DNA of 64,000 nt from an uncultured Dehalococcoidales bacterium (GCA_964472625.1 CAYYLM010000004.1:27422-91421); one strand, 5' to 3'; numbered from the stretch's first letter, positions 24,685-40,917 are shown. A program made the numbers and translations. The notes: generated by a model not told the origin, from the sequence alone.

Positions 24685-24803
24685 CTAAACCGACTGGCGG
24701 TCTTGGGTCACGATTCTGTGAGCAACTTGGTATCTGCGGAATTTCTTGAATCAAGAAGACGAGACGTATCATTTCATCAAAATACTTGAAAAGGAGAAAC
24801 ATT

Positions 24804-24893
24804 ATGCCCGGACTTATAGCAGCCTTGGTTGCCCTGTTTGTGTGGTTACTTTACGAGACTAAATGGCTTACTATCCGTTTGCCTCAAAAATAG
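24804..24893 (+). CDS. 29-aa hydrophobic peptide (MPGLIAALVALFVWLLYETKWLTIRLPQK)
   Basis: Below the ORF-track size cutoff. An AAGGAG Shine-Dalgarno lies 7 nt before the ATG. It has one predicted TM helix and a basic C-terminus, and lies downstream of the consensus promoter. Confidence 0.4.
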   Translation: MPGLIAALVALFVWLLYETKWLTIRLPQK

Positions 24894-25161
24894 CCACCAT
24901 ATTCTGCTTCACGTAGTGACCCTGTAGACTAATTGGACGTGGGCGACATTAGCCGAAAAAAGCGGAGGTATTCAGAAATCCACAGCATCTTCAAACCTCA
25001 AGGGTAGGAGCAGTTCTGTATACGTGAGGCTATTTTAATTAAATGAATCACAATTCTTCAAACATAAGGACTACTCAAAGCCTGCTTTGGCCAATAGGAA
25101 GCAGTTTAGTTCTTGACCACTACGCCCGCAGTAGGAAGTTGGTAAGATTCCGAAAGCAGAG

Positions 25162-25563
25162 GTGGACCTTCACAGTAAAGAGGGCATCATGAAGGAGGCT
25201 AACAGCCGGCCAGATTTGATATCTCGCTACCTTAAGCGTTCAAGAACTTCATTTAAGAAGTTGTTCAGCAGTATTCCCAATCTTGCCCCTGACGGTGATA
25301 AGAGTGTCCACCGCAACACAAAGTCCTCAACTAGGGAAGTAGCCAAGCCCGAGCAGAGGTATCAAGACCTATTAGCGAAGCTTCAGAGAGACCATACTGG
25401 AGTGCCGAGGGCAAGAGAAAGACCAAGAAGTGTACGGCAACTTCAAGAAGCCGTTAATGATATCGTGTGTGAGCGAAAACAGAAAATGGCCAATGCCCAC
25501 AGCAAAGAGGAGATACTACTGGAGTTTGTGGGCGGCCTATATAAGATCAAGTCTCTGCTATAG
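25162..25563 (+). CDS. Hypothetical basic protein
   Basis: 133-aa ORF. The more likely start is the ATG at 25189, preceded by AAGAGGG. The sequence is Lys/Arg/Ser-rich, probably disordered, and matches no family I recognise. Confidence 0.4.
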   Translation: MDLHSKEGIMKEANSRPDLISRYLKRSRTSFKKLFSSIPNLAPDGDKSVHRNTKSSTREVAKPEQRYQDLLAKLQRDHTGVPRARERPRSVRQLQEAVNDIVCERKQKMANAHSKEEILLEFVGGLYKIKSLL

Positions 25564-26521
25564 AATGGGAAGACCCGCACTAGCGGCACCCATGAGAGAC
25601 AGTGACTCCCCACAGCGCGGTTAATCAGAAACCACTGTTCACTCTCCTCCATCCTAATAGCGTAATAAGACGATTAACCGTTAGGATAAAACCCTACACT
25701 ACCAATTTGTAACAGTGGCTTCCACGGGGTTCTCGTTTATTAGAATCTACCACTGGCTTATGCCTGTATATAACCTTCATGCAGTTAAGGCACTGCCAGC
25801 CGTCTTCATGTCTTATGAAGGTGTCACCATAACAGTAAGGCTTGGGGCATACTTGTGGTGGCTTATTTGCATGTATTGTTTCTATTACCGCAGGTTCGAT
25901 GATGCTCCTCTCCTTCTCTTCCTACAATGGAATTGTTTTGAAGAATGTTTTCCATTAGGATATATGCTGGCCCACCCATACCCCATAAGCAATTAGTCCA
26001 GCTGCTACCAGAGCACCGATTAAAACTATTATCCGGTTACGCTTACTCATTCTTCATCTCTAGAGATTACTTCTCATAACCCTTATTAACTCTATGTCAT
26101 CATAAGTATTTAAAACTATCGCTAAGTACGCTTCAATCACCCATTGGTACCATTCTGTTTGGAAATAGACTATACGAAAGTAGGAAACAACACTTGGTTT
26201 AAGACCTGGCTATACCCCCGCCGAGCATTTTAATCAATTTCCAGCTAATTCTCGTACCTAATTAATTAGGGAGATTAAAGGCCTTTAATAGTTTTCCAAA
26301 GTTATCAAAAAGGGGGGAATTAATACTCAGAGTGGCATTTCGCACGGGATAGACGAGTTGCGAAGGGCTTCTAGCAGAAAGATTTATACTTGTGCGTATG
26401 CTAACCTAGAGATTATGATTATTAGGAGAACTATTCCAGTGGTTAGATAGCGAGGTATCTTATAGGTACAAACGTTAAGGCAGCATTCAGAAGTCGGAAT
26501 TTCATTTTTATTCTGGCCATA

Positions 26522-27379
26522 GTGCTTGGACTCACTCTAGGTCAGGGGGCTGATTTTATAAAGCCTCTGCTATTGCCATCGGTAGCAGTAGCTATGACTC
26601 TCAGCACCATCAGCATAACGAATCGTGATCTTGCCTCTATCATACGTAACCCACGAACTCTATTAGTTTCACTATTGCTTAACTATGTTATTTTGAGCGG
26701 TGTAATGCTGCTTATGGCTAAGTTTATCTTAAACGATGGTGAATTATGGGCTGGGTTCGTGACCATTGCCGCAATGCCGCCGGCAACTTCCATAGTACCC
26801 TTCACCTACATGTTGGGAGGTGATATAGTTTTTTCCCTTATTGGTGTAGCTGGATTATATCTGGTAGCGATAGCTCTTGCACCCGCCATGATGGTACTGT
26901 CTCTAGGTGTCGACTTAGTCAATCCAGTCAAGTTACTCCTTACCCTCTTATACCTAATAATCATTCCGGTTGCGGTATCACGATTACTCCTTTTCAAGGG
27001 CCTACGTGAGGCCATTACTAAGTGGCAGGATACAGCGGTGACGTGGTGCTATTTCACTGCGGCTTACATCATAATCGGTTCAAATCAACAGTTCTTTTTC
27101 GAGCAAGCTGGTGTTTTGTTGAGGGTTCTGGCAATAGCTCTTACCGTTACCTTTGTCGTAGGACAACTCATTTTCCTCACCGCTAGGAAGTTACATATCG
27201 ACTGGTCAAGGAGCATCACCTTCTCAGTAATGGCCACCAGGAAAAACACTAGCTTGGCTAGTGCTATCGCAATTGCGTTTCTTGGCCAGAGAGCCTCTTT
27301 TCCCGCCGCTATCTACACAATAGTCCAAATCGTATATCTGGTGTGGCAGGGGTTTTACCTTAAGAAACGGACGGGATAA
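26522..27379 (+). CDS. BASS/SBF-like membrane transporter, paralog of 9383-10309; N-terminus apparently lacks a canonical start
   Basis: 285 aa from GTG 26522. The same reading frame stays open back to 26447 and encodes KAAFRSRNFIFILAI, which aligns with the paralog N-terminus RFSHLFRNMGFILALA. That stretch contains no ATG, GTG or TTG. Confidence 0.6.
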   Translation: MLGLTLGQGADFIKPLLLPSVAVAMTLSTISITNRDLASIIRNPRTLLVSLLLNYVILSGVMLLMAKFILNDGELWAGFVTIAAMPPATSIVPFTYMLGGDIVFSLIGVAGLYLVAIALAPAMMVLSLGVDLVNPVKLLLTLLYLIIIPVAVSRLLLFKGLREAITKWQDTAVTWCYFTAAYIIIGSNQQFFFEQAGVLLRVLAIALTVTFVVGQLIFLTARKLHIDWSRSITFSVMATRKNTSLASAIAIAFLGQRASFPAAIYTIVQIVYLVWQGFYLKKRTG

Positions 27380-27386
27380 ATGTAGC

Positions 27387-27419
27387 GACAAGCCTTTGTG
27401 GCTCAGACTTGTCTTTTTT
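27387..27419 (+). terminator. Rho-independent terminator after the transporter paralog
   Basis: GACAAG ... CTTGTC stem with an inner AGCC/GGCT pairing, followed by TTTTTT. Confidence 0.5.
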
Positions 27420-27499
27420 CAAGAGACTTAAATCCCTCCGACCTTCTTAATCAATTTTCAATATACGGGAAATATAGGGCTTACCCCATAATAACACAA

Positions 27500-27636
27500 G
27501 GCGCCTGATCGAATTCAGGCGCCTCACTTTTACAAAATATACCCAGTTAAAACTTATTACCATTGAACAAACATCGGTATGCTTACTAATCCTTCCCTTA
27601 TAGGTTTATACTCTCGGATACATGTATTTGTTGAAT
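27500..27636. repeat. Intergenic repeat, copy A: 9-bp GC hairpin plus conserved 28-nt box plus distal imperfect inverted partner
   Basis: GGCGCCTGA-N6-TCAGGCGCC (27500-27523). Box TTATTACCATTGAACAAACATCGGTATG (27555-27581). Partner ATGTATTTGTTGAAT (27622-27636) pairs imperfectly with the box. Confidence 0.75.
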
Positions 27637-27835
27637 CCACAGAGCTTCTATTATATCATTTATATCATACAGTTATGCTTCGAAGTAAATAATTAGTAAT
27701 TAGTCTGATCTGGCCTAATTAGAAAAAGCCCCAGTGACTTGATCTATCGTCAACCACTAACGGTAACAGCCTATTTCACGCAATACGCAAGACATCTTTC
27801 TAGAACCATGAGAAAATGAAAATGGAGGGACAGAG

Positions 27836-28849
27836 ATGAAAATGTGTTTTCTTGGTAAGAGTGGTATTAGGGTATCCGAGCTATGCTTCGGAACCATGAC
27901 CTTCGGGGGTCGTGGGGATTTCTTTAAGGCAGTCGGTCAAGTTGACCAAAATGAAGCCAACACAATGGTGGCTATGGCCTTAGACGCTGGGATAAACTTT
28001 TTTGACACAGCGGATGTATATTCTCAGGGTCTATCTGAGGAAATCTGTGGTAAGGCACTAGGAGTTAGGCGAAAAAACGTAATTCTGGCAACCAAAGTCC
28101 GTGCTAGAACCGGGGCAGGACCAAACGACGTGGGGCTTTCAAGGCATCACATCCTAGAGGAATGCGATGCTAGTCTCAAGAGACTGGGGACAGATTATAT
28201 TGACCTCTATCAGGTTCATAGCTTCGATCCTATAACACCATTAGAGGAGACCTTGCGTACACTTGATGACTTAGTTCGTCAAGGTAAAGTGCGCTATATC
28301 GGATGTTCAAATTTCGCTGCCTGGCAATTGATGAAAGCTTTAGCTGTTTCAGAGAAGTACGGCTGGGAAAGATTTATATCACTTCAAGCCTTTTATTCCT
28401 TGCTGGCGCGCGAATTGGAAAATGAGTTGGTTCCACTGTGCTTAGACCAGGGAATGGGGATCCTAGTCTGGGGTCCTTTAAGTTGGGGCTTTCTCACTGG
28501 CAAATACCGACGCGGGCAACCTCGACCCAAAGATTCCCGTATCACCAAGCTGGAATCGATTCCGTTGGTATTCGACGAGGAAAAAGGATTTGATGTTGTG
28601 GATGAACTGAACCTAATCAGCAAAGAGCACAAAGTTACCGTGCCACAGGCAGCTATAAATTATCTTCTTCGCAAACCAGGAATAACTTCAGTAATCATTG
28701 GCGCAAGGACACGCCAGCAGCTCGCCGACAATTTAAAGGCAACCGACTGGGAGATGACGTCCTCAGAAATGGCTAGGCTTGATCAGATCACAAATCCTTT
28801 GCCTTTATATCCATACTGGTTTCTGACGGGGAGGGTACACGAACGCTGA
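27836..28849 (+). CDS. Aldo/keto reductase
   Basis: 337 aa. Contains LCFGTMTFGG, FFDTADVY and IGCSNF motifs of the AKR superfamily. GGAGGGA Shine-Dalgarno. Confidence 0.9.
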   Translation: MKMCFLGKSGIRVSELCFGTMTFGGRGDFFKAVGQVDQNEANTMVAMALDAGINFFDTADVYSQGLSEEICGKALGVRRKNVILATKVRARTGAGPNDVGLSRHHILEECDASLKRLGTDYIDLYQVHSFDPITPLEETLRTLDDLVRQGKVRYIGCSNFAAWQLMKALAVSEKYGWERFISLQAFYSLLARELENELVPLCLDQGMGILVWGPLSWGFLTGKYRRGQPRPKDSRITKLESIPLVFDEEKGFDVVDELNLISKEHKVTVPQAAINYLLRKPGITSVIIGARTRQQLADNLKATDWEMTSSEMARLDQITNPLPLYPYWFLTGRVHER

Positions 28850-28886
28850 GTGAGCGCTATGATAATACCTAATCTAGATACCAAGA

Positions 28887-28919
28887 GCCCCTCGAGAAAT
28901 CGAGGGGCTTATTATTTTA
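28887..28919 (+). terminator. Rho-independent terminator after the AKR gene
   Basis: Perfect 8-bp stem GCCCCTCG / CGAGGGGC with a 6-nt loop, followed by TTATTATTTT. Confidence 0.65.
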
Positions 28920-28938
28920 AGAATTCCATGCTCAAAAT

Positions 28939-28973
28939 TTATTACCATTGAACAAACATCGGGATGTTTGTTC
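28939..28973. repeat. Intergenic repeat, copy B: conserved box forming a tight hairpin
   Basis: TTATTACCATTGAACAAACATCGGGATG matches copy A at 27 of 28 positions. GAACAAACAT-CGGG-ATGTTTGTTC forms a perfect 10-bp stem. Confidence 0.75.
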
Positions 28974-29141
28974 CGTTGTAGGTATACTTATACCATGGAC
29001 AAGGGCTACTCTCTGCCAACAGGGTACTAAATTCGGGACTATTTAATTAGGTAACAAAAGCATTTGCATAAGGGGTGTCTGTCCAATTCTTCACCATCGG
29101 GCTCAAAACAAAAGCCGTTATTTTAGGCTCCCCGGGTGGGA

Positions 29142-29378
29142 CTAGAAGCCGCTACCGTCAGGAATACCGTCGCCAGAGTTCGGAGCAGGCCCAATCGGTC
29201 CACACCCAGACCCTACATCACCATTTGCTCCGTTAGGGGCATCAAGTCCGCTTCCATCGGAAATACCATCGCCAGCATTAGGGGCAGGCCCCATCGCTCC
29301 AGCACTATCGGCAAGGGCAACACCAGACGTAGCCGCAAACAACGCTATGACCACAACTATCACCAACAACTTTTTCAT
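29142..29378 (-). CDS. Secreted 78-aa Gly/Asp/Pro-repeat peptide
   Basis: Has a Sec-type signal peptide (MKKLLVIVVVIALFAATSGVALA). The mature part contains two copies of GPAPN(A/S)GDGI(S/P)DGSG. Last gene of the ECF sigma cluster. Confidence 0.6.
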   Translation of the reverse strand: MKKLLVIVVVIALFAATSGVALADSAGAMGPAPNAGDGISDGSGLDAPNGANGDVGSGCGPIGPAPNSGDGIPDGSGF

Positions 29379-29427
29379 GGCTTCCTCACTATTAATTAAA
29401 CTTCTTAACCCAGACTATAATGTTAGA

Positions 29428-29586
29428 CTACGGCTGGAAAGGTGGAGGGTCTTGTACCTGCACCTGCACAACCTCACCTTGACCGTTCTCCCCACGGACT
29501 TTGTCACCGCTGGCAGAAACGGCAGAAGCCGTCGTTAGAGATAATACACCGGTAATCAAAAGGGCTAACAAAACCTTTCTTCGCAT
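29428..29586 (-). CDS. Secreted 52-aa peptide (MRRKVLLALLITGVLSLTTASAVSASGDKVRGENGQGEVVQVQVQDPPPFQP)
   Basis: Below the ORF-track cutoff and translated by hand. Strong AAAGGAGGAG Shine-Dalgarno. It has a signal peptide with an ASA-like cleavage site. Confidence 0.5.
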   Translation of the reverse strand: MRRKVLLALLITGVLSLTTASAVSASGDKVRGENGQGEVVQVQVQDPPPFQP

Positions 29587-29642
29587 TGCTCCTCCTTTGC
29601 TCCTACGTTATCGCAGTATTTCACAAGATATTGCTTTAACAG

Positions 29643-30524
29643 CTATTTCTTTGTTTGTACCCAATGGTTCTGAAGATCCGGGCCTTCACCTTCGCTGGTC
29701 TCGCCATATCCTGCTCCCGTGTTACCAGCACTGACACCCCAGCAGTTCTCAAGACCAGGGCCCGCTCCATCACTAGACTCACCCCACCCTGCTCCCGGCT
29801 CGCCTTTAACTACCTCTTCGCCTTTATATCCTGACGCTGATATTGTAACCTCACCAATATCCTGACCGGTGGATACAGTAGCCTCCTGTGAACCTTCCTG
29901 AACGCTCGTGGTTTCTCCCTCACCGGCTATTACTCTGATAGAATTACGCTGCCGCTCCCTGAGCACTAGTTTAACCTGATTGGCCGCCTCGGGGTCTTCT
30001 TGCTCCATCAGCCTTAAAGCCGTTTGCTGGCAGATACAGGCTCTTTCCCTGGTCTGAGTCATGGTTTCCCTGGCTTCTTCAGGAATCTCGCCTACAACGT
30101 CATCAAATATCACGGTGTGTTTTGCCATAGCCAGAGCTACCATTGCCCGAATACGATTGCCCTGATTCCCCGAGGTTTCAACAGCCTCCACTGCAGCATT
30201 TATACGGTCATTGTATCCGCTTAGTGCCCGTATCGTAGCTCTTACGTTATTCCTAGCCATCATGCAGTTCATTTCCGCCAGTCTCTCTTCGGCATACTGC
30301 AAGGCCTTCTGCACCCTCGCTTCTTCTCTGAAGGTAAACCTGAGCGCAATCTGCTCAGCCAACTCATCAAAAAAGTAGAGCGGGCTGTCCGGGGTAATGC
30401 CGGGGTTCGGCAGTTCCGTTGTCTCTTGGGCAAAGGCGGCCCCAGTAGGACAATAAACGAGGGCTAATGTGCAGACGGCAAGGACGATACTTAATCTTCG
30501 CATTGCTTTACCTCCCTTCCACAT
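29643..30524 (-). CDS. Secreted helical DUF5667-like protein with a Gly-rich repeat tail
   Basis: 293-aa ORF. The likely real start is ATG 30503 (MRRLSIVLAV..., after GGAAGGGAGG). After the signal peptide comes PNPGITPDSPLYFFDEL, as in DUF5667. The tail repeats GAGWGESSDGAGPGLENCWG / GAGYGETSEGEGPDLQNHW. Confidence 0.65.
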   Translation of the reverse strand: MWKGGKAMRRLSIVLAVCTLALVYCPTGAAFAQETTELPNPGITPDSPLYFFDELAEQIALRFTFREEARVQKALQYAEERLAEMNCMMARNNVRATIRALSGYNDRINAAVEAVETSGNQGNRIRAMVALAMAKHTVIFDDVVGEIPEEARETMTQTRERACICQQTALRLMEQEDPEAANQVKLVLRERQRNSIRVIAGEGETTSVQEGSQEATVSTGQDIGEVTISASGYKGEEVVKGEPGAGWGESSDGAGPGLENCWGVSAGNTGAGYGETSEGEGPDLQNHWVQTKK

Positions 30525-30667
30525 AGATACATAACGGGGAAAGGGGTAAATTGTTACAGAAGAGCCACCAATGCCTCAAATTCGCCCCGTCCAGCGCGAG
30601 TCGTCCTTGAAAAGGAAAGCCAGTAGCATCACTGATAATACGAGAGGGCTGAAAATGAAAACCTAGG

Positions 30668-31945
30668 TCAGTGTTTTCCGTTACCCGATCCAGCGGACCC
30701 GTCGCCCGAATCACGAGACCCACTACCAGAGTTGTTAGGATCAGGTTTCAAAATTCTTTCCTTTACATTTCCCGGAATGTCTTCAGGTATTGGTGGCTGC
30801 TCCGGGATATCGTCCAAAGCACCCTTTTCCTGCAACCCTTCCACTGCCTGGCCATAAGCGTCGACAGAAGCTTCCATTGCGTTCTCCACCGTTTGCTTTG
30901 CAGGCTCGGGGACTTTACCATAGATGACGCCCAACACTTCGAGATGAGCCGATGCAGCTCGAGCGTTCAGTTCATCAACCTGAGCTGAGCCATTACCCAG
31001 TCCCTTGGAGATTTGGGAAATCTCCTCGCCTAGTCTACTCAGCTCCTCGAATTGCTCGAGTGCTGCTTCGGCTTTATCCAACTGGTTCTCCTCAGCTTTA
31101 TTACGAGCACGACTCAGCCTAGACTCTATCGTCATAAGATTGATTTCGGCAGCTCTTACCGGATTCCCCACGGCAAGGTCCTGCAAAGACCTGATGTGTG
31201 CGTTAAATGCCATCTCTCCGGCCTGCCGGATGCTGTAGCTAGCCTCTTCCGCAACCGTATCCTCGATGGAATCAAACACCTCAATGTGGCCTGAGGTAGC
31301 TAGGGCCAGGGTCTCCAGGGTATTAGCCGATTTCGAGGCATCACCTATTTTCTCCGCGTTTTCCAGGGCTAAGGCAAGGTTCTTTTCGTACCCATCAATT
31401 GCCATAATTAGTTGTTCACTACCTCTATATGCCACAGCCGCAATCTCTCTTAATCTCGTGTTTGCAAATTCGAGCTCCAATTCTACTTCGCCAACATCAT
31501 CGACCTCAATCACCCTACGGATTTGCTCTGTGGCTAGCTTCACGGGGTACAGATTATCACCCGGCAGGCTATCCTGTGAGGCATAGGCTAAACCACCGCC
31601 TAATCCAAAGACACCGGCAACGACGGCAAGCGCGACCGTCGCAGCCTTAAGCCTGACTGAGTAGACCATTCGTTTCGCCTTAACAACCTGCCCGATGCGT
31701 GATGGCCCTTTCGCCATACGGTCTGCGTGAATATGCTCCATGAGACTCGCTCTTGCCCTGGCCTTGAACTCGCGGGACGGCCTTATGTCCGGGGGCTCGC
31801 CTAAACTAACCGCGATATTAAGCAGCGGTTCCAGTTCCTCTCGCAGGGAAGGATAACGCCGGAGACAACCGGCTACATCCGATTTTCCCGATTTAACCGC
31901 TTCAATGCATTCTAGAAGTATTTCCTCTATTCTTTTCTTCGACAT
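30668..31945 (-). CDS. Membrane-anchored anti-sigma-like protein with an extracytoplasmic DUF5667 domain
   Basis: 425 aa. Its ATG overlaps the stop of the sigma factor gene. It has a cytoplasmic N-terminus, one TM helix (ATVALAVVAGVFGLGGGLAYA), then LPGDNLYPVKLATEQ typical of DUF5667. The rest is a long helical ectodomain and a Gly/Ser-rich tail. Confidence 0.7.
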   Translation of the reverse strand: MSKKRIEEILLECIEAVKSGKSDVAGCLRRYPSLREELEPLLNIAVSLGEPPDIRPSREFKARARASLMEHIHADRMAKGPSRIGQVVKAKRMVYSVRLKAATVALAVVAGVFGLGGGLAYASQDSLPGDNLYPVKLATEQIRRVIEVDDVGEVELELEFANTRLREIAAVAYRGSEQLIMAIDGYEKNLALALENAEKIGDASKSANTLETLALATSGHIEVFDSIEDTVAEEASYSIRQAGEMAFNAHIRSLQDLAVGNPVRAAEINLMTIESRLSRARNKAEENQLDKAEAALEQFEELSRLGEEISQISKGLGNGSAQVDELNARAASAHLEVLGVIYGKVPEPAKQTVENAMEASVDAYGQAVEGLQEKGALDDIPEQPPIPEDIPGNVKERILKPDPNNSGSGSRDSGDGSAGSGNGKH

Positions 31946-32580
31946 CAGTCTCTTCCCGCCTCGAGAATATGCCTCAGCTTCTTCAGCGCCCGATGCAGAA
32001 TAACCCTGGTGGCCCCTTCACTCTTCCCAAGCGAATCAGCAGTCTCGGCGAATGAGAAACCCTCAATGAACCGCATCAGAACCACCCGTTGCTGATCGCC
32101 ACTCAATTGCGAGATAGCCATCCGGAGCCTCTCCTGGTCAAAATGAGCCTGAGCCATCACTTCGGGGCTTGATTCAGGGCCTTTTGCCACCACTCCGTCA
32201 GGGAGACGAACCTTATCTTTTTTAGCCCGGTAGAAATCTACAACCAGATTATGGCTGATAGTCATGAGCCAGGCTATGAATGGGCTGCCCGTCTTCTTGT
32301 ATCGAGGTATCGCCTGCCAAGCCTTTAAGAAGACTTGCTGAGTTAAGTCCTCTGTGTCCGCAACCCTACCAATTCGGTAGTAGATATGCCTGTAAACTCG
32401 ATCTACATGCATATCGTATAGCCTCCCAAAGGCTTCAGCATCGCCTGCTTTAGCCTTCTGAACCAACATGTCGACATTTACTGTCTCTGAAGTCGAAGCT
32501 TCGTACAATCGCAGTTCCTTTTTGTTTAACGAACAAACAGCCAGAATGTTACAGGTATGCAGTCGTCGTACTGATGACAA
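31945..32580 (-). CDS. ECF-type sigma-70 family RNA polymerase sigma factor
   Basis: Region 2 (DLTQQVFLKAWQAI, FIAWLMTISHNLVVDFYR) and region 4 (QQRVVLMRFIEGFSFAETADSLGKSEGATRVILHRALKKL) are present. The track start is TTG 32580. More likely starts are TTG 32508 (after AAGGAA) or ATG 32469. Confidence 0.9.
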   Translation of the reverse strand: MSSVRRLHTCNILAVCSLNKKELRLYEASTSETVNVDMLVQKAKAGDAEAFGRLYDMHVDRVYRHIYYRIGRVADTEDLTQQVFLKAWQAIPRYKKTGSPFIAWLMTISHNLVVDFYRAKKDKVRLPDGVVAKGPESSPEVMAQAHFDQERLRMAISQLSGDQQRVVLMRFIEGFSFAETADSLGKSEGATRVILHRALKKLRHILEAGRD

Positions 32581-33038
32581 TGAATTGAGCTAGCTGTAGC
32601 CAGGTTTCCTGACGCACTTTATTATACCCTGTCTTGCTGAGAACCCGGAAATTAAACGAAGGCCACAAGACACGAGAAGGTATAGCAAGTGAACGATCAA
32701 AGCGGTTGTATTATTGATCCCACCGATAATAACCAAAATCCATTATTACCCAAAGTGTAACAAATTAAGCATAGTTCCCGTTAACTAATTACAGGAGGCG
32801 GATTTTCTGATTTAAGCACCTTGCATGCTTTTTAGAATTTAAACCCAGGTATGCTTTGCATGGGATAAATAGGAAGGGAAGGGGGTGATAAGTTTACCGT
32901 TCATTTAGAAGTCGACTATGTTTCCAACATTGATTGATATCTTAGTTACTTCTGTTACCAAGATTGCTTTTAAAGCCGACAGCGTAGGTCGAGTACCAAG
33001 TGAAATAAAAATCGCTAGTTATATCGGAGGGATATGAA

Positions 33039-33683
33039 GTGAAAAAAAAGGTTTTAGCCATCGTACTGGCAGCAGTACTAGCAATCAGCCTGGCTGTGCC
33101 GTTGGCAGTAAGCGCTAACGGTGATCCCGTAGTAGCAGGAGAAGTCACTGGTGGCGGTCAAATTGAGACCGGTAAGGACAAAGACGCAGCCATGATAACC
33201 TTTGGTGGCAATCTTAACAATCTGGGTGGGGAACCGGTTGGACACTGGAATGTTGTTTTCCATAATGTGAACAATGATGACCTCGATATGAAGCAGTTCC
33301 ATCCGGCTGAAATAACATTCCTTGAATTCGAGCACATTCCCCAATGTCCGGAGCCAGACCCACCAGATGCCGATTATAACAGAGCTATTTTTAGGGCGAC
33401 TGGTCGCTTAGATAGTGAGGATGGCTGGAGCATTGAGGTTAGATTGGCGGATCATGGAGAAGGCAGGCGAGGAGAGGGCAGACAAGGTATGGCGGAACTA
33501 GATAGCATTAGGATTTTCCTATGGGGTCCTGATGGCGTTCTGCAATACGATTCATATGAGAATGGCGATGACTATCAAGGCGACTTTCCAGGTGAATCTG
33601 AGTGCGGCGTGGACGCTCTGACAAAACTCGACGGCGGCAACTTCCAGATACGCGCTAAGTGGGAAGGGCCTGAGCCAGGATAA
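33039..33683 (+). CDS. Secreted hypothetical protein
   Basis: 214 aa. GTG start after GGAGGGA. It has a signal peptide (MKKKVLAIVLAAVLAISLAVPLAVSA). No family recognised. Confidence 0.6.
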   Translation: MKKKVLAIVLAAVLAISLAVPLAVSANGDPVVAGEVTGGGQIETGKDKDAAMITFGGNLNNLGGEPVGHWNVVFHNVNNDDLDMKQFHPAEITFLEFEHIPQCPEPDPPDADYNRAIFRATGRLDSEDGWSIEVRLADHGEGRRGEGRQGMAELDSIRIFLWGPDGVLQYDSYENGDDYQGDFPGESECGVDALTKLDGGNFQIRAKWEGPEPG

Positions 33684-33761
33684 AGACAAAAGTAGTCCGA
33701 TGCCCCGTGGCTCGGAACCACCAGCCGTAACCGGACACTCAAACAATAAAAAGTCAATAGT

Positions 33762-33802
33762 GAAACCGACCTATCGAATCTATAGGTCGGTTTCATATTT
33801 TG
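33762..33802 (+). terminator. Rho-independent terminator
   Basis: Perfect 13-bp stem GAAACCGACCTAT / ATAGGTCGGTTTC with a 7-nt loop, followed by ATATTTTG. Confidence 0.7.
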
Positions 33803-33886
33803 CATTTGATAGCTTAAACAGCTAGATTTTTCGTGAGGAAACTCAACGAACCGCCACACAGTCGGTATAACAATACTAGAAAAAAG

Positions 33887-33970
33887 GGCGCCTGATTCTA
33901 TAACCAGACGCCTCACTTTATTGATAATTTAGCTACGGAAATTTATTACCATTGGACGAACATAGGTATG
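33887..33970. repeat. Intergenic repeat, copy C: GC hairpin plus conserved box
   Basis: GGCGCCTG ... CAGACGCC hairpin with one mismatch, followed by TCACTTTA as in copy A. The box TTATTACCATTGGACGAACATAGGTATG matches copy A at 25 of 28 positions. Confidence 0.75.
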
Positions 33971-34318
33971 ATAGCGTGGACATAATAACCCCCATAAATA
34001 GAAATAGGGGGGAGCATTTCTGCCCCTTTTGACTACCATATTTACACTTAGAATAATGAATCCTAGCAATTGCTCATGGTAGTCTTACACGCTATCATGC
34101 TTCTGATCAATTCTCCGTAAGATTGAACAATACTGACGAATGTGTAATCTTTCTCGACCTCAATTCATAGCTGGTGTTGGCGCATGATTCATTCGTAGTT
34201 GGCTAAATGGGAATTTGCACATCTATAGGCAGACAGGTAAGATTAGGTGCATAAACCAAGCCCTTACTGATATGGCAAGGAACGTAGGTGTTACCACCCT
34301 CACACCAGGAGCAAAGGG

Positions 34319-35839
34319 ATGTGCGGTATAGTCGGAATTTACGGTAAAGGGGCCGATCAACAGACAGTTCAGATGAATGCCATGCTGGGAAAGATCCGTC
34401 ACCGGGGGCCCGACGATCTTGGTACCTATGTGACTGACAACATTGCCTTAGGACAGACCAGGCTTTCCATAGTGGATGTGGCCGGGGGAAAACAACCAAT
34501 CTTCTCAGAAGATAGCAGAGTCTGTATCATCTGCAATGGGGAAATATACAACCATTTAGCCATAAAGGAGAAGCTCCCCAGTCACTATTTTAGAACTCGC
34601 TCTGACACAGAGGCTATACTCCACCTATTCGAGGAAGAAGGTGAACAGTCAGTTTCTCATTTGGATGGCATGTTTGCCTTCATAGTGTATGATGGCAACA
34701 GTATTTTGGTTGCTCGAGATCCTCTGGGAATTAAGCCTCTCTATCTTGGGGAAGAAGACGGCTGTCTCTTCTTCGCTTCAGAAATAAAGGCCTTACAAGG
34801 GTTAGTTCGGAGTATTCAGGAATTTCCTGCCGGGCATTATTTCACCCCCGAAAATGGCTTAGTGCGGTATTACCAAATGGAAGAGTCTCCAGAATGGGGA
34901 AACAATGTGGCAGAGATTAGCGCCGAACTGCGGGAGCATCTGGGTAGGGCTATTGAAAAAAGATGGATGGGTGATGTTCCCGTGGGTTGCTTCCTTAGCG
35001 GAGGCATTGATAGTAGCTTAGTATCTGCAGTATCTAAGTACAATTTTGACCATCTTGACACTTTTTCCGTAGGCCTAGGAGAAGAAGCCCCAGACCTACC
35101 ATTCGCCAGGAAGGTAGCTCAATATCTGGGTACTAGCCATCATGAATATGTCTACACCCCAAAAGAAGTTCTGGGAGCTTTGCCTGATATTATCTACCAC
35201 TTGGAATCTTTTGATCCTGCTTTAGTGCGTAGTGCTATACCCTGCTATTTCGTGTCCAAGTTGGCCAGCGAGTATGTCAAGGTAATTCTCACTGGGGAGG
35301 GTTCAGATGAGGTCTTTGCTGGCTATCATTACTTCAAACAATATGATAATCAAGAGGACGTCCATAAAGAAGCTTTGAGGATCCTTTATGGACTGCATAA
35401 TATGAACTTGCAGAGAGTAGACCGGGCCACCATGGCCCATTCAATTGAAGGTAGAGTACCTTTTCTAGATATCGAGTTTGTCGAGTATGCCTTCTCCATC
35501 GATCCAGAACTAAAGAAAGCGGGCAGGGGAATACGTCCGGAAAAATGGCTCATTAGGCGAGCCTTTAATGATTATTTGCCTGAAGAGGTTATATGGAGAC
35601 CGAAAATGGAGTTCGCTGCCGGCTGTGGTTCAGAGCAACTCATCACCCAACTGGTAGATGATGAAATCACGGACGATGAATTTGAGCATGATAAGAGTGC
35701 CTTCAATCACGTCAGTCTGGCCTCCAAAGAAGAACTCTATTACTACCGGATATTTCACGACTTCTTTGGTACTGACGTTGACGCCGAAGCGATTGGCCGT
35801 TGGCAGGGTGGCTTCTCCGCAGATTTCGCAGATCTGTGA
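34319..35839 (+). CDS. asnB: Asparagine synthase (glutamine-hydrolysing)
   Basis: 506 aa. N-terminal MCGI nucleophile Cys, a FLSGGIDSS PP-loop and an EGSDE motif. Confidence 0.92.
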   Translation: MCGIVGIYGKGADQQTVQMNAMLGKIRHRGPDDLGTYVTDNIALGQTRLSIVDVAGGKQPIFSEDSRVCIICNGEIYNHLAIKEKLPSHYFRTRSDTEAILHLFEEEGEQSVSHLDGMFAFIVYDGNSILVARDPLGIKPLYLGEEDGCLFFASEIKALQGLVRSIQEFPAGHYFTPENGLVRYYQMEESPEWGNNVAEISAELREHLGRAIEKRWMGDVPVGCFLSGGIDSSLVSAVSKYNFDHLDTFSVGLGEEAPDLPFARKVAQYLGTSHHEYVYTPKEVLGALPDIIYHLESFDPALVRSAIPCYFVSKLASEYVKVILTGEGSDEVFAGYHYFKQYDNQEDVHKEALRILYGLHNMNLQRVDRATMAHSIEGRVPFLDIEFVEYAFSIDPELKKAGRGIRPEKWLIRRAFNDYLPEEVIWRPKMEFAAGCGSEQLITQLVDDEITDDEFEHDKSAFNHVSLASKEELYYYRIFHDFFGTDVDAEAIGRWQGGFSADFADL

Positions 35840-35940
35840 ATCAGGCAACAACTCTTAATGCATTAGTCCCCGGGTTTGCTAAGATAAGCTCCCAACGGCT
35901 TGATCGGCACATCCGGCAAAGCAAATACTAGCCCACTAGC

Positions 35941-36002
35941 GGTTTTGAACGTATTATCACTTTTCAGTCTGCAAACTAGTGTTCGATAATACGTTCAAAA
36001 CC
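35941..36002. repeat. Perfect 18-bp inverted repeat with a 26-nt spacer between convergent genes
   Basis: GGTTTTGAACGTATTATC (35941-35958) and GATAATACGTTCAAAACC (35985-36002). Confidence 0.85.
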
Positions 36003-36186
36003 TAGTTTCTACAGGGACTCTATATCAATTCTATACTAGGTAGCCTCCGTAGCTTTATGCTAGTAATCTCTGTTGCCAATGAGAACCCTAATAATAGCTA
36101 CGCTCTACCGGCAATGAGTGTCACTCACTGCATCTAACATCAAAAGCTGAATTAACTTCTCTTTCCGGAGTTACGATGCTCTCTTA

Positions 36187-37140
36187 CTACTCTTCGACCA
36201 AGCCATGGGCAACAAGGTACTCGTGAGCAACTTCATCTGGTTCCATCTTGTCGATATCAACCTTTGCATTTAGTGCCTGCCAAACCTGCTGGCCCTGCGC
36301 CACTATTTCTGGGGTAGCCGCCTCACCCGCGCCCGGGAATGTAGCCACTAGATCATTGAGAATATTCTCGATCTCAGGGTACTTGTCAAGGACATCGGCG
36401 CGGACATAAGGTGTTAGGTCATAAGGCGGCCAGAAGGCTTCGTCATCTAGGTACGCATGCCAGGAATACTTAGCAATAATGGCATCAGTACCAAAGGCCA
36501 TGGCCACATCACACTCATGGTTTTCCAAGCCTAGGAGCGATGCTCCCGGAGCTCCAGTCATAAGAGTAGCTTCAGGGACTTCAAAGCCATAGTAGTCTTC
36601 TAAAGCAGGTAGACCATCAGGACGAGTAGAGAATTCAAAGCCAACAAAGGTTCTGATATCTACTTCCCCAGCTTGATAAAGCGCCGCCAAATCGGAGATG
36701 GTCTGTAGGTTATTCTCTTCAACGAACTCAGGCCAGGAAACCAGAACATAAGTGTTGTTATTCCAAATCGGGTCCAGCCAGATGAAACCGTTGCTCTCCT
36801 CTTCTTCCTTAACCATTTGGTAAATCTCGTTGTTATCAACACCCGGCGTGTACTCATGCCCGAGATGGGTCATCCAAGCCGTACCAGTGTAATCGGCACA
36901 GATGTCAATATCTCCGGCTTCCATTCCCTCCCTCAAGGCCATAGTAGAGAGGTCTGACACCAAACTAACCGTAAAGCCGCGTTCCTCCAACAACTGCTTC
37001 ATCAGTTCGCCAATGATGTACTCCTCTGTGAAGTTTTTATTGCCCACGGTGACTTGCTTAGGGGCACCTGGCCCAGCACAGCCCAGAAGCAACCCAAGGC
37101 TTATACAGACGGCCAAAACAATAGCAATTACTTTCCTCAT
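36187..37140 (-). CDS. Osmoprotectant (glycine betaine/choline type) ABC transporter substrate-binding lipoprotein
   Basis: 317 aa. Has a lipobox LLLGC signal and an OpuAC/OpuCC-like sequence with aromatic-rich ligand-box residues. Last gene of the four-gene ABC operon. Confidence 0.85.
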   Translation of the reverse strand: MRKVIAIVLAVCISLGLLLGCAGPGAPKQVTVGNKNFTEEYIIGELMKQLLEERGFTVSLVSDLSTMALREGMEAGDIDICADYTGTAWMTHLGHEYTPGVDNNEIYQMVKEEEESNGFIWLDPIWNNNTYVLVSWPEFVEENNLQTISDLAALYQAGEVDIRTFVGFEFSTRPDGLPALEDYYGFEVPEATLMTGAPGASLLGLENHECDVAMAFGTDAIIAKYSWHAYLDDEAFWPPYDLTPYVRADVLDKYPEIENILNDLVATFPGAGEAATPEIVAQGQQVWQALNAKVDIDKMEPDEVAHEYLVAHGLVEE

Positions 37141-37228
37141 CTTTTTACCTCCTCAGATTTAATATTGTCACTACTCTCGTTAATAGCTTCTTCTAAACTA
37201 GCGACTTTTACTCCATAGTCTACCTCCT

Positions 37229-37957
37229 TTAAGAAACTCCGGCCCTCACCTTCAATCCGCGTGGGGTCATCCATCTTTCAACACTTTCTATCATAAACCC
37301 TAGACTAATGGCCAGGGCCGCGGTAGGGGCTGCTCCTTGTAGAATAAGCAGAGGCTCTCTGGCAAAGACTCCGGTTAGGGTGATTCTGCCCAAACCAGCG
37401 CCGCCAACCAGAACCGCCAGCTCTGCCGTGCCTACCGTGATAACCGTGGAAATTCTAATTCCGGTTGTTATTACAGGCAGGGCTAATGGTATCTCAATTT
37501 TGCGAAGGATTTGCCTTCTGGTCATGCCCATTCCTCTGGCAGCCTCGATCATGGCAGGATCAATATTTCTCATAGCGGTATAGGAATTACGCAAGATAGG
37601 GAGCAGCCCATAAATGAATAAGGCTACAATTGCGGCTTTAAAACCAAAGCCAATCAGAGGCGCCATTATGGCAATTAAAGCTAGGCTAGGAATGCTTTGC
37701 CCAATATTAGCCCCACCGAGCACCGGCGGTATAAGCTTGGTAAACCTCGGGCGAGTAACTAGGATGCCCAAGGGTACGCCAATGGCAATCCCAATGAGTA
37801 CCGCTATGAAGACCATTTGGAGATGTGCCCTAGTATCGTGCAGTATCTCTTCAAAGGTGAAGGTGCGATAAATCCCCAGCTGACCTAGGCTGGTAATCCA
37901 AATAGTCAGTGCGATAAACAAACCCAAAAGTATGAATAGAACAATCCGACGTTTCAT
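37229..37957 (-). CDS. Osmoprotectant ABC transporter permease
   Basis: 242 aa. BPD-type permease with the EAARGMGMT.RQIL EAA loop. Confidence 0.85.
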   Translation of the reverse strand: MKRRIVLFILLGLFIALTIWITSLGQLGIYRTFTFEEILHDTRAHLQMVFIAVLIGIAIGVPLGILVTRPRFTKLIPPVLGGANIGQSIPSLALIAIMAPLIGFGFKAAIVALFIYGLLPILRNSYTAMRNIDPAMIEAARGMGMTRRQILRKIEIPLALPVITTGIRISTVITVGTAELAVLVGGAGLGRITLTGVFAREPLLILQGAAPTAALAISLGFMIESVERWMTPRGLKVRAGVS

Positions 37958-39069
37958 TCCAATTTTTCCGTTTCAGCAGCCTCACTTAGTGCCTTCTGGA
38001 TAGCATCAAAGGTTAAGATTCCCTCTAACTTGTTATCTTCGTTAACTATCGGCAGTGCCTTCAGTCCACTGCTCAACATAACTGATAGAGCTTCGTTCAA
38101 GACGGCGTTTATGGTGAAAGTGGTCGTCGAAGGCTTCAAAATATCACGCACCTTCTTCCTATCTTCCAAATCTGATGCGTCAAGCCATCCTATGAACTCG
38201 CTGTCATCTGCGATAACCGGTAATAACTCAATCCCTTCTCGTTCCATCCGCTCCCGAACAACTGCTAATTGTTCATCTGGTTTGGCAACCGGTGGTGAAC
38301 TCATCATAACTTCCTTCACTCGGAGTAGCTGCAGCCCCTTCAGGGCTCGATCAGCACCAACAAAACCCTCCACGAATTCGTCTTTGGGATGATATAGAAG
38401 ATTGGCAGGGGTATCGTATTGCACCAATTGCCCTTCCTTCATCAGGGCAATCCTGTCTCCCATCTTGATTGCCTCATAGATATCATGAGTTACAAATATG
38501 ATGGTCTTTTTTATCTTCTGCTGGATCTTTAGAAATTCGCTTTGTAATTCCACCCTAGTTATGGGGTCAATGGCACCAAAGGGCTCGTCCATGAGTAACA
38601 TCGGCGGGTCAGCACCTAATGCACGAGCTACGCCTACCCGCTGGCGTTGGCCGCCAGAAAGCTCGTTGGGATACTTGTCAATAAACTCACCGGCGGGCAA
38701 TCTCATTAATTCTAAGAGCTCTTCAGCTCTTTGCCTTCGCCTTTCCTTACTCCAGCCTTTGAGTGCCGGTACTGTCTCTATATTCTCGGCTACGGTCATA
38801 TGTGTGAAAAGCCCTATCTCCTGGATAGCGTAGCCTATATTCCTGCGTAGCTCAGTCTCGTCTATTTTGGTATTGTCCACCCCATCAATGTATATTCTTC
38901 CGCTAGTTATAGGTATAAGGCGATTTATCATTTTCATAGTGGTAGTCTTGCCACACCCGGAAGGCCCGAGAAAGACACAGAGCTCTCCATTCTCGACCTC
39001 AAAACTCATTCCCCGTACCGCCTTTGTTCCGTCAGGATAGACCTTAGTAACATTTTCCAGCTTGATCAT
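37954..39069 (-). CDS. Osmoprotectant ABC transporter ATP-binding protein with a C-terminal CBS pair
   Basis: 371 aa. Contains GPSGCGKTT, LSGGQRQRV and LLMDEPFGAID, with a tandem CBS region at the C-terminus as in OpuCA/OpuAA. Confidence 0.9.
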   Translation of the reverse strand: MIKLENVTKVYPDGTKAVRGMSFEVENGELCVFLGPSGCGKTTTMKMINRLIPITSGRIYIDGVDNTKIDETELRRNIGYAIQEIGLFTHMTVAENIETVPALKGWSKERRRQRAEELLELMRLPAGEFIDKYPNELSGGQRQRVGVARALGADPPMLLMDEPFGAIDPITRVELQSEFLKIQQKIKKTIIFVTHDIYEAIKMGDRIALMKEGQLVQYDTPANLLYHPKDEFVEGFVGADRALKGLQLLRVKEVMMSSPPVAKPDEQLAVVRERMEREGIELLPVIADDSEFIGWLDASDLEDRKKVRDILKPSTTTFTINAVLNEALSVMLSSGLKALPIVNEDNKLEGILTFDAIQKALSEAAETEKLE

Positions 39070-39752
39070 GGTTTCGACTTACCTATCTTTAGACCTCTCG
39101 GGGTAATTCGCCGTTCCACTATGGCCATAAGGCCATCGGCCAGCAGGGCTAGGATAGAGACAGATATTCCCCCAATAATTATTAAGTCCATTCGGGCATT
39201 CCTCAACCCCCGGAATATAGGGACGCCAAGTCCCCCGGCGCCAATCAAAGTGGCAATAGCTGCGATGCCAATAATTAGTACGATAGCATTTCTCAAACCC
39301 GCTATGATGACGCGAGACGCAAGTGGGAGCTTAATCTTGAATAATATTTGTCTTTCCTCCATTCCCATCCCCTTGGCGGCCTCGACCATTGCCGGGTCAA
39401 CTGCTTTTATCGCAGTATAAGTATTGCGCAATATTGGTAACTGGCCATAGACAATAAGGGCGATAATCGCTGGGAGAAAACCAATGGCACTCAGGTTCAT
39501 GGTAGCCAGAATGAACATGAGCAACCCAAAAAGTGCCAAGCTGGGAATAGTCATCATTACCTCTGCTAGGTAGAGTACAGTATCCGCTATATGCTGCCGG
39601 CCGTTACCGGTAATATAGATTCCCAGCGCTATACCGAGAGGGACTGCTATGGCAATAGCAACGAAGGTTATTCGCAAATGGGCAAGCGTCCATGCTGCGA
39701 GAAGTTCCGGCCGTTCGCTTATAAATTGCCAGGCTTCTAACATCAATAACAC
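39066..39752 (-). CDS. Osmoprotectant ABC transporter permease
   Basis: 228 aa. Contains the EAAKGMGMEERQIL EAA loop. It overlaps the ATPase gene by 4 nt. Confidence 0.85.
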   Translation of the reverse strand: MLLMLEAWQFISERPELLAAWTLAHLRITFVAIAIAVPLGIALGIYITGNGRQHIADTVLYLAEVMMTIPSLALFGLLMFILATMNLSAIGFLPAIIALIVYGQLPILRNTYTAIKAVDPAMVEAAKGMGMEERQILFKIKLPLASRVIIAGLRNAIVLIIGIAAIATLIGAGGLGVPIFRGLRNARMDLIIIGGISVSILALLADGLMAIVERRITPRGLKIGKSKP

Positions 39753-39881
39753 TCATCCTATGCTTTTATCTACTACAGAGGGAAATTGGATAAGTCAACC
39801 AGACTTGAAGCGTGGAAGCACAGCGGTAACAGGTTACTATTACTACTACGTGAGAGCTCTACCAACCATTTTTCTAGCCTA

Positions 39882-39910
39882 ACCATAATGCCTTTTCTAC
39901 TAGTTGTCAA
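39882..39910 (-). promoter_or_regulatory. Sigma-70-like promoter for the osmoprotectant ABC operon
   Basis: The minus strand reads TTGACA - 17 nt - TATGGT, about 130 nt upstream of the ATG at 39752. Confidence 0.4.
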
Positions 39911-40084
39911 TACTCCGAATAGGGCTGCCCTGTCTGATTAAGGCTATCATTTACTTCTACTTAGCTGCTCGATATCCCCTGTGAGAGCACATAAGGCAGA
40001 CAGCTTTTAACCCCGCGGCGGTTGAATTCCTCGAACTTACAGTAGTATTCACTTCTATAGTCCCAGATACCCGAAGTCAAACCC

Positions 40085-40113
40085 TTGAACCAGATTTATG
40101 ATTTGACTAGAAT
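40085..40113 (+). promoter_or_regulatory. Sigma-70-like promoter for the 77-aa ORF
   Basis: TTGAAC - 17 nt - TAGAAT, 22 nt upstream of the ATG at 40135 with an intervening GAAGGAGG. Confidence 0.45.
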
Positions 40114-40134
40114 AGAACCCTGAAGGAGGTTGGA

Positions 40135-40368
40135 ATGAAGGAGCAAGAAATAGGATTGATAGGATTGGTAGCAAGGATTCTGGGATTTCTGCGCGATCAT
40201 AATCAGCATTGCTATACAGCGGATGAACTGGCAGATAGAGAGAATATCAAGAGAGACGAGAGCGTAGACGCAAACAGAATGCGGGAAATCTGTGAGGAAC
40301 TGTGTAAAGAGGGGTTAATAGAACCCAAGCGTGAAGACGAGGTTCGATGTTATAAAGCCGTTCGGTAA
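40135..40368 (+). CDS. Hypothetical 77-aa protein, possibly winged-helix-like
   Basis: Good promoter and Shine-Dalgarno. The helical pattern (ARILGFLRDHNQHCYTADELADRENI ... LCKEGLIE) is reminiscent of small wHTH proteins. No family firmly recognised. Confidence 0.45.
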   Translation: MKEQEIGLIGLVARILGFLRDHNQHCYTADELADRENIKRDESVDANRMREICEELCKEGLIEPKREDEVRCYKAVR

Positions 40369-40842
40369 ATATAGAAGCAATCGGCTGAATCTAGTAGATC
40401 ACTTCTATTACCCTGAAGTCGGGGAAACTGTATGTTGATGGTAACATTTAGGCTATATGGGTTTATCCACAGAATACACTTGTCACTTTGATACCAATAG
40501 CTGAGCAGCGTCCCAAGCCGAATTCGAGGTCGCATTTGCTTATATTGTTCAATAGCATTTTTATATCGAAGTCAGTACAGTTCCCATTACTGCCCCTTTT
40601 GACTAATACATTTACCTATGAAGATGTAGACATTCAATTATTGTATAGTTCCCATTGTGGCCGATATGTTTCTGAATTACCTCCCCGAAACCACTCTCTA
40701 CATAGGTGGCGTCTGTCCAGCAATTCCATAATTAGGTCATATTCCGGCGGAATTGTTAAGCAATACGGAAAATTAACAAGATTTGATGCGAGGAATTGCT
40801 CATTTGAACCAGCTTCAGCTATACTTAGAAGTGATTTAGCCT

Positions 40843-40917
40843 GCCAGCGTAGCTCAGTGGTAGAGCAGCGGTTTCGTAAACCGCCGGTCGTCAGTTCGAC
40901 TCTGACCGCTGGCTCCA
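40843..40917 (+). tRNA. tRNA-Thr (anticodon CGU), CCA encoded
   Basis: Hand-folded cloverleaf. Acceptor stem GCCAGCG/CGCTGGC. D-arm AGCTCAGTGGTAGAGC. Anticodon stem-loop GCGGT-TTCGTAA-ACCGC. T-arm GTCAG-TTCGACT-CTGAC. Then discriminator T and CCA. Confidence 0.9.

Follow-up and report, generated by a model that had tools for sequence, protein, structure and literature searches.

Three copies of a 28-nt box lie within a 64,000-nt stretch of DNA from an uncultured Dehalococcoidales bacterium (GCA_964472625.1, CAYYLM010000004.1:27422-91421), which was analyzed at its full length and is referred to here as the window, with positions counted from its first nucleotide. In Dehalococcoidia, a family of large serine recombinases (LSRs) very probably uses the sequence of this box as its attachment site. 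On the minus strand the box spells the 3′ end of dnaN, which encodes the DNA polymerase III beta clamp, and in other genomes genes of the LSR family end within it. The three window copies, designated A, B, and C, are most likely attachment-site junctions bounding two segments that lack a recombinase gene, one carrying an aldo/keto reductase gene and the other a module with an extracytoplasmic function (ECF) sigma factor.

A 28-nt box occurs three times on one strand

The copies lie on the plus strand at 27554-27581 (copy A, 0 mismatches), 28939-28966 (copy B, 1 mismatch), and 33943-33970 (copy C, 3 mismatches). Three copies had been reported in an initial annotation, made from the window sequence alone, and this was confirmed: none would be expected by chance, and 100 dinucleotide-preserving shuffles of the window yielded zero box matches. 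A repeat search extended the common unit to 36 nt, at 27549-27584, 28934-28969 (92%), and 33938-33973 (81%). A profile hidden Markov model (HMM) of 144 boxes from other genomes identified exactly these three sites, with E values of 9e-12, 8e-10 (copy A), and 1e-9, and the next match across the 64 kb had an E value of 0.5. The three differences among the copies fall at third-codon positions of a minus-strand reading frame.

The box is the 3′ end of dnaN

The initial annotation had proposed to look for further copies in relatives, and these proved numerous. We ran a box pattern, with the four variable positions left open, against bacterial and archaeal genomes, one for each species. More than 117 stretches were found, nearly all of them in metagenome-assembled genomes (MAGs) of Dehalococcoidia or Chloroflexota, including Dehalococcoides mccartyi and SAR202. 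The opposite strand of the box reads ATG CCG ATG TTT GTT CAA TGG TAA, and in most of the matches it closes an open reading frame (ORF) of ~380 aa ending in ..NYxHVVMPMFVQW-stop. This ORF encodes the DNA polymerase III beta clamp, with all three DNA_pol3_beta Pfam domains (loci L120 and L121). The loci fetched from these genomes contained 81 boxes that are true dnaN ends and 69 solitary boxes, a count that takes in secondary copies at up to 5 mismatches.

A profile of the dnaN 3′ end, for which the terminal 224 nt of 77 dnaN genes were used, matched the three copies in the window and nothing else (Table 1). The window copies reproduce the final 24 bases of dnaN. As judged from its sequence, the box is therefore the minus-strand 3′ end of this gene, (M/I)-P-M-F-V-Q-W-stop, plus about 12 nt of downstream sequence. 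The match was longest at copy C, where tblastn with DnaN residues 382-393 hit the same place, and this junction has the appearance of a dnaN 3′-end relic.

The initial annotation had also suggested a dispersed repeat, of the repetitive extragenic palindromic (REP) or miniature inverted-repeat transposable element (MITE) kind, or a transcription factor operator or promoter element of the downstream genes. The site is indeed intergenic in the window and has a partial dyad (TACC-N14-GGTA), and sigma-70-like hexamers lie 50-60 nt downstream of copies A and C. However, there are only three copies in 64 kb, which are not dispersed, lie on one strand, and are never inverted, and terminal inverted repeats and target duplications are absent. 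The distance to the next plus-strand start codon is 255 nt for copy A and 349 nt for copy C, with none for copy B, and promoter-like matches (18 versus 16.1 in shuffles) show no excess. With a sequence that lies within a gene in most genomes and is coding in 81 cases, we consider a dispersed repeat or an operator extremely unlikely. Candidate sigma-70, ECF, sigma-54, MerR-type, LexA/Cheo-box, and cre motifs, sought by eye, were dropped because the box is coding sequence in most genomes.

Genes of a large serine recombinase family end in the box

Two of the loci carry complete LSR genes encoding Resolvase, Recombinase, and Zn_ribbon_recom domains. The gene of locus L111 abuts and overlaps the box, and that of locus L041 is located past the dnaN box, ~2.5 kb downstream. 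In locus L018, a degraded LSR copy also overlaps its box. The L111 and L018 genes are convergent with the dnaN reading direction, and their final codons read the box on the other strand. The nearest homologue of solved structure is the SPbeta prophage integrase (E value of 1e-15).

The link between recombinase and box holds across the family. We found 563 homologues of the L111 recombinase at an E value of ≤1e-20, and the tail (L/F)(V/A)TI(E/V/A/G)(Q/R)T(S/W)(A/G) was present in 78 of the 120 best of these. The final nine codons of this tail are the antisense translation of the box. Approximately 60 end directly after ..TSA, at a TGA stop codon made from dnaN codons that lie left of the box. 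The convergent recombinase and dnaN genes of L120 and L121 are arranged tail to tail and overlap by 26 nt at the box.

In locus L122, two recombinase genes converge on one single box. The second of these, entering from the other side, ends in ..DEHTSRCLFNGD, which corresponds to the inverted arm followed by the box in the +1 frame. Copy B of the window has an arm of this kind. It folds into a perfect 10-bp stem with a 4-nt loop (GAACAAACAT CGGG ATGTTTGTTC; z-score of -5.3), as the initial annotation had described. Its minus strand reads ..T-E-Q-T-S-R-C-L-F-N-G-N (..TEQTSRCLFNGN), resembling the C-terminal tail of recombinases that enter from that side, and residues 530-540 of recombinase P0101 matched 28973-28941 with 82% identity over 11 residues. 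Since copy B matches the L122-type tail, its "palindrome" would consist of two half-sites, each doubling as the end of a recombinase gene. Copy A consists of the dnaN-terminal half-site and the center only; it has no adjoining inverted arm, and its partner arm, ATGTATTTGTTGAAT, lies 47 nt away, again as first described.

A flank of ~80-110 nt directly after the box (TAAATTCTAACGGAACCGCAATACGGATTTTCAT…) is conserved in seven loci (L002, L011, L012, L066, L083, L098, and L104). On the opposite strand, this flank contains a mini-ORF, MKIRIAVPLEFITIEQTSA, that runs through the box and is possibly what a large internal deletion has left of a recombinase gene.

The recombinase and the half-sites bear on another proposal of the initial annotation, that the copies are attC sites in an array resembling clusters of attC sites lacking integron-integrases (CALINs). 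On this reading the copies would fold as single-stranded hairpins, acted on by an IntI tyrosine recombinase whose gene lies elsewhere. The copies do come after blocks of genes, copy B folds into a perfect hairpin, the distal arm of copy A ends in GTTGAAT and so agrees with the pattern GTTRRRY, and no integrase is encoded in the window. This pattern (GTTRRRY/RYYYAAC) is, however, absent from copies B and C, and copies A and C have no adjacent complementary arm. Across the class it is the primary sequence and not the structure that is conserved, and the conserved part is simply the coding end of dnaN. Both strands carry genes between the copies, and these genes have terminators of their own, unlike co-oriented promoterless cassettes. 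The recombinase that repeatedly overlaps the box is a serine recombinase and not IntI, and Rfam scans gave no relevant match. An attC array is hardly credible on these grounds. What survives of the proposal is its general idea, a partly palindromic, recombination-type site at cassette boundaries in a window without an integrase.

Evidence for sequence exchange inside the box

The boxes with 500 nt on each side were compared all against all, with position 0 set at the A of ATGCCG. Similarity between solitary and dnaN-attached boxes was limited to about -5 to +35. Flanks were shuffled on either side of the box: pairs that shared the downstream flank and had unrelated upstream flanks broke at -1/0, and pairs that shared the upstream flank and had unrelated downstream flanks broke at +21. 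The codon left of the proline codon ended in G in all 81 dnaN genes, whereas its third base in the 69 solitary copies was G (23), C (32), A (10), or T (4). To the right of this base, changes were mostly synonymous, and all three stop codons (TAA, TAG, and TGA) were found. Such a pattern is expected if the right half must be capable of finishing an essential gene, which the left half never does.

Dyad symmetry about C3 and C4, the first two bases of the proline codon, was higher in solitary junctions (6.9 of 12 positions complementary) than at dnaN (3.75 of 12). The central CC of the junctions is never self-complementary, in keeping with serine-integrase sites, whose central dinucleotide is asymmetric. 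The breakpoints and the symmetry together suggest that the crossover probably occurs at this CC.

Copies of the dnaN end might instead have arisen by duplication of the gene end and its terminator through homologous recombination, gene conversion, or slippage, with no site-specific recombinase involved. Such an origin would suit the 47 nt of dnaN-like sequence retained at copy C, and also locus L085 (oriented), which has a second copy of its own dnaN 3′ end (148 nt, 95% identical) 663 nt downstream of the first (positions 5656 and 6319). In most solitary copies, however, the homology ends within a few nucleotides of one position (-5 to 0), the flanks on the opposite side form conserved inverted-arm classes, and the box forms the tail of most of the best homologues in one specific recombinase family, as described above. 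We judge an origin without a recombinase to be quite improbable.

Boxes form unidirectional arrays downstream of dnaN

In the 25 multi-box loci and in the window, all boxes of a locus have the same orientation, with no inverted copy. Among 80 dnaN loci, 245 kb of sequence upstream of dnaN contained 0 extra boxes and 241 kb of downstream sequence contained 18, and the median box spacing was 1.45 kb. Gene order is conserved upstream of dnaN and hypervariable downstream, even among near-identical dnaN alleles. Genes near the boxes are of ordinary kinds but extremely varied: 277 cargo proteins were tested in all, with 159 and 194 Pfam families matched in two sets; examples include two-component systems, dehydrogenases, transporters, and methyltransferases. 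Clustering of 912 ORFs near solitary boxes revealed no recurrent family besides the rare recombinase. A sensor kinase and response regulator pair found in four loci was judged to be cargo.

One cassette has been found in two settings. A cassette of locus L074 is 90% identical to the inter-box cassette of locus L009, yet it lies between different 23-nt direct repeats (125-147 and 1742-1764, dnaN orientation). These repeats read I-P-K-N-V-stop, and the two copies differ synonymously only; they may be the 3′ end of a second conserved gene serving as another attachment site.

The window array lies in a strain-specific region next to tRNA-Thr

The features of the array and its surroundings are listed in Table 1. 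A close relative, L123, aligns by blastn with the window at 90% nucleotide identity over 11600-25640 and then jumps to 40808. Housekeeping genes (serA, an aminotransferase gene, tyrS, and ribF) lie to the left of the array, and the GC content is 0.42-0.48 between about 24 and 44 kb compared with 0.50-0.55 to the left. The tyrosyl-tRNA synthetase of the window shares 77-90% identity with proteins labelled Dehalococcoidia or Dehalococcoidales, which places the organism in that group.

Table 1. Coordinates of the box copies, hairpins, genes, and segments in the window
Feature	Position	Strand	Description
Strain-specific region with array	25640..40808		15.2 kb; missing from L123 (blastn)
SBF-family transporter gene	26522-27379	+	
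Hairpin after copy A	27496..27527	-	Same class as copy C hairpin
Copy A	27549..27584	-	Minus-strand read CAT ACC GAT GTT TGT TCA ATG GTA A, I-P-M-F-V-Q-W-stop
Copy A, dnaN-profile match	27581-27557		25 nt; E value 2e-4
A-B segment	27585..28933		Sole gene, aldo/keto reductase; box start-to-start spacing 1385 bp
Aldo/keto reductase gene	27836-28849	+	
GC hairpin of different type	28885..28910	both	Between aldo/keto reductase gene and copy B; predicted bidirectional terminator
Copy B and inverted arm	28934..28974	-	Near-complete dyad GAACAAACAT-CCCG-ATGTTTGTTC, centered on the CC of the proline codon
Copy B, dnaN-profile match	28965-28942		24 nt; E value 3e-4
B-C segment	28975..33937		Genes for two DUF5667 proteins and ECF sigma factor, 214-aa ORF; box start-to-start spacing 5004 bp
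DUF5667 protein gene	29643-30524	-	
DUF5667 protein gene	30668-31945	-	
ECF sigma factor gene	31945-32580	-	
214-aa ORF	33039-33683	+	No Pfam match
Terminator hairpin after copy C	33887..33912	-	11-bp stem with G-U pairs, then CUUUUUUCU (U6); weak on plus strand
Copy C, extended dnaN-like stretch	33938..33992	-	..G-Y-Y-V-H-A-I-I-P-M-F-V-Q-W-stop; 47 nt matching dnaN end
Copy C, dnaN-profile match	33992-33946		47 nt; E value 1.1e-7
Asparagine synthase gene	34319-35839	+	
tRNA-Thr (CGT), intact	40843..40917	+	Right edge of strain-specific region

L123 has boxes of its own in the orientation seen in the window. One has the inverted-arm flank of copy B (79%, 89 nt), one has the hairpin flank of copy C (80%, 85 nt), and one is partial. 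They occur in a different order, and the cargo between them differs and includes a 616-aa protein and a flavin mononucleotide (FMN) reductase. At the level of sequence, comparison of the two strains provides direct evidence for recent cassette turnover at these junctions in the lineage of the window. L123 retains only the 5′ half of tRNA-Thr (7099-7176), which is broken after the anticodon loop and joined directly to core genes. An intact tRNA-Thr and a tRNA-like fragment are found in locus L124 (2169-2259 and 5665-5739), along with fragments of a tyrosine-integrase gene. The tRNA-Thr evidence from L123 and L124 indicates that an integration hotspot at tRNA-Thr coexists with the dnaN-type boxes.

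A GC hairpin ends ~30 nt to the left of every copy, as reported initially, and copies A and C have a hairpin in common (GGCGCCTGA…/…CAGRCGCC TCACTTT), also as reported. The same class of hairpin, GGCGTCTGG.., is found 3′ of the box elsewhere, in seven solitary and two clear dnaN-attached cases. Because it recurs after boxes in other genomes, the copy C hairpin appears to be part of a repeated module, a terminator that follows a mimic of the dnaN end. The plus-strand gene to the left of copy C has its own terminator at 33760-33796, so the copy C hairpin is not the terminator of that gene.

The initial annotation had also raised a small RNA (sRNA) on the minus strand. We considered this in the form of an sRNA or terminator module in which box, ~30-nt spacer, and hairpin with a U tract would be transcribed as a short regulatory RNA. 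The hairpin of copy C is a good intrinsic terminator on the minus strand only, its class recurs after boxes elsewhere, and the predicted minus-strand terminators on which the idea drew are present, most clearly at copy C. Terminators are expected in any case, because the box must be able to serve as a dnaN end. No conserved minus-strand promoter was seen upstream, where the flanks differ wholly among copies and genomes, and sequence variation tracks dnaN codons rather than base pairing. Rfam scans of the region, at the gathering score and at an E value of ≤10, returned only the tRNA and two chance miRNA-like matches, and thus no Rfam match for an sRNA. A regulatory RNA at the box seems very improbable, and we give as little credence to its being antisense to, or a mimic of, the 3′ end of the dnaN mRNA.

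The transporter and aldo/keto reductase genes were called correctly at the outset. Genes between the copies lie on both strands. The ~680 nt adjoining copy B (28990-29640) contains no ORF of >90 aa; this stretch was examined as a possible recombinase pseudogene and rejected, since it has no detectable similarity to the recombinase family. By tblastn, the B-C segment contains no recombinase remnant apart from the 11 tail codons at copy B. Two contigs of the Logan set (L001 and L119), from one sequencing run, end or begin inside copy B (28941-28963), and the box explains the breaks of short-read assemblies of this genome at that copy.

Some other repeats were noted in the window. A 31-nt match between 34009-34045, to the right of copy C, and 40585-40615, upstream of tRNA-Thr, comprises hairpin GGGGAGCATTTCTGCCCC, a T run, and TTGACT; it was not extended by alignment and looks like a common type of terminator. 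Terminators similar to this one, GGGGAGCA..TGCTCCCC, adjoin boxes in L009, L030, L039, L074, and L102. A repeat flanking the transporter gene (26217 and 27434) likewise gave no extension on alignment. Long minus-strand ORFs with internal ~380-nt tandem repeats occupy 45200-57100 (for example, 45817-50427, 1536 aa), and 300-nt blocks that are 74-80% identical are also present in a second region ~9 kb away. From the look of the sequence alone, these repeats resemble PAS-domain sensor kinase paralogues.

Proposed origin of the array

We infer that the three window copies arose by integration. An element would integrate at the dnaN end, with the crossover probably at the CC of the proline codon, and the element's own half-site copy would then supply the final codons of dnaN. 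Because it supplies codons of an essential gene, the incoming copy could vary synonymously only. The earlier box copy would be displaced downstream. Repeated integration, accretion, and decay would result in arrays of same-orientation copies between blocks of cargo, many of them without a recombinase. In the window, copy C would be a relic carrying dnaN-like sequence, copy B would contain both half-sites, and copy A one half-site, each with the terminator-like hairpin of the repeated module next on the minus strand.

Several observations weigh against this explanation. The main loose end is that the window array adjoins tRNA-Thr and not dnaN, so that relocation, a composite island, or integration at a secondary site must be assumed. 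There is no dnaN in the 64-kb window, where tblastn with DnaN found only short tails at the boxes, and tblastn with the L111 recombinase and 12 family members found no LSR homologue there either. Other assemblies were searched for exactly the proteins of the window, which gave contigs of the same sample or nothing. Complete or degraded LSR genes were present in only three of 117 genome loci, together with two short unconfirmed fragments. Recombinases being this rare near solitary boxes, most cassettes would need to be fossils or to be mobilized in trans. A free element bearing attP did not turn up: an IMG/VR scan with the box pattern gave 0 matches.

Other difficulties concern the exchange itself. 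The position of the crossover was deduced from breakpoints and symmetry and was not observed. Some solitary copies, including copy C, have extra dnaN-like codons that a 2-bp serine-recombinase exchange does not simply yield, and the duplicated dnaN end of L085 is far longer than the usual 24-36 nt, a length that simple serine-integrase exchange would not give. The presence of an L009-type cassette between other repeats in L074 implies that the system is more complex than the simple model.

Integration by LSRs at the dnaN end might also be part of something larger, although we regard this as a doubtful extension. The boxes could constitute an integron-like platform for gene capture run by serine recombinases, with a trans-acting recombinase picking up, swapping, and rearranging small recombinase-less cassettes at the box junctions. 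The dnaN end would then be the primary landing site, with arrays possibly also at secondary loci such as the tRNA-Thr region, and the codon-constrained half-site might be a class-wide signal for cassette recombination, more than a scar. We hold each of these propositions to be possible but rather unlikely.

Implications and comparison with known systems

The dnaN end apparently represents a previously undescribed integration hotspot, conserved across the class Dehalococcoidia and matched by a large family of serine integrases. A search of the full-text literature found no paper describing dnaN as an integration target. Dehalococcoidia are important in bioremediation and in marine carbon cycling and are very difficult to manipulate genetically. 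A landing-pad tool might be attempted from a native integrase paired with the dnaN-end site, which the examined dnaN genes of Dehalococcoidia carry. The box also shows how codon constraint can act on an attachment site, since an arriving element has to restore the 3′ end of an essential gene, and it offers a simple marker to delimit horizontally acquired segments in MAGs of this group. In the window, the three repeats most likely mark seams between pieces of acquired DNA.

Phage integrases such as SPbeta SprA and those of A118 and phiC31 have the same domain architecture as the box-linked recombinases, use short dyad-like attachment sites with an asymmetric central dinucleotide, and act at sites in host genes. 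Their integration usually interrupts the host gene, which becomes whole again upon excision, whereas here a replacement 3′ end keeps the essential gene intact. Integron CALINs resemble the arrays in having short gene blocks between a recurring recombination-type site with no integrase nearby. Conservation of structure, single-strand tyrosine recombination, and promoterless co-oriented cassettes characterize attC sites, and none of these was found here.

In the staphylococcal cassette chromosome mec (SCCmec), the large serine recombinases CcrAB and CcrC integrate at the last codons of rlmH (orfX), near the replication origin. SCC elements also form composite tandem arrays between direct repeats and include pseudo-SCC segments that lack ccr (see also PMC3146451). 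They belong to another phylum, target another gene, and use recombinases of a different clade, and pairs of a small and a large recombinase were not seen in the Dehalococcoidia loci. Streptococcal cis-mobilizable elements (CIMEs) are segments flanked by attachment sites that lack recombination genes, arise by decay and tandem accretion, and can be mobilized in trans by a related integrase (concept in PMC3146451). CIMEs involve tyrosine integrases and other target genes, and for the segments described here mobilization is putative.

The closest organization is found within the same bacterial class, in the ssrA islands of Dehalococcoides, which are arranged in tandem between direct repeats that correspond to the 3′ end of an essential gene present in single copy (McMurdie et al. 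2011, PMC3146451). A gene for a serine recombinase of ~540 aa (DsiB) lies beside attL on the opposite strand and overlaps the repeat, and many islands have no integration module and are thought to be cis-mobilizable or fixed (PMC3146451). DsiB and the box-linked recombinases are likened here by organization and not by sequence homology. Both systems have repeats of an essential-gene 3′ end and islands or segments without a module, and in the relatives of the window, as in the ssrA islands, an integrase gene overlaps the repeat. They differ in that the target here is the protein-coding end of dnaN rather than the tmRNA gene, and is codon constrained, with synonymous variation only. The repeat is 24 nt plus about 12 nt, compared with 20 bp in the ssrA islands, the segments are much smaller, and the window array is not located beside its target gene.

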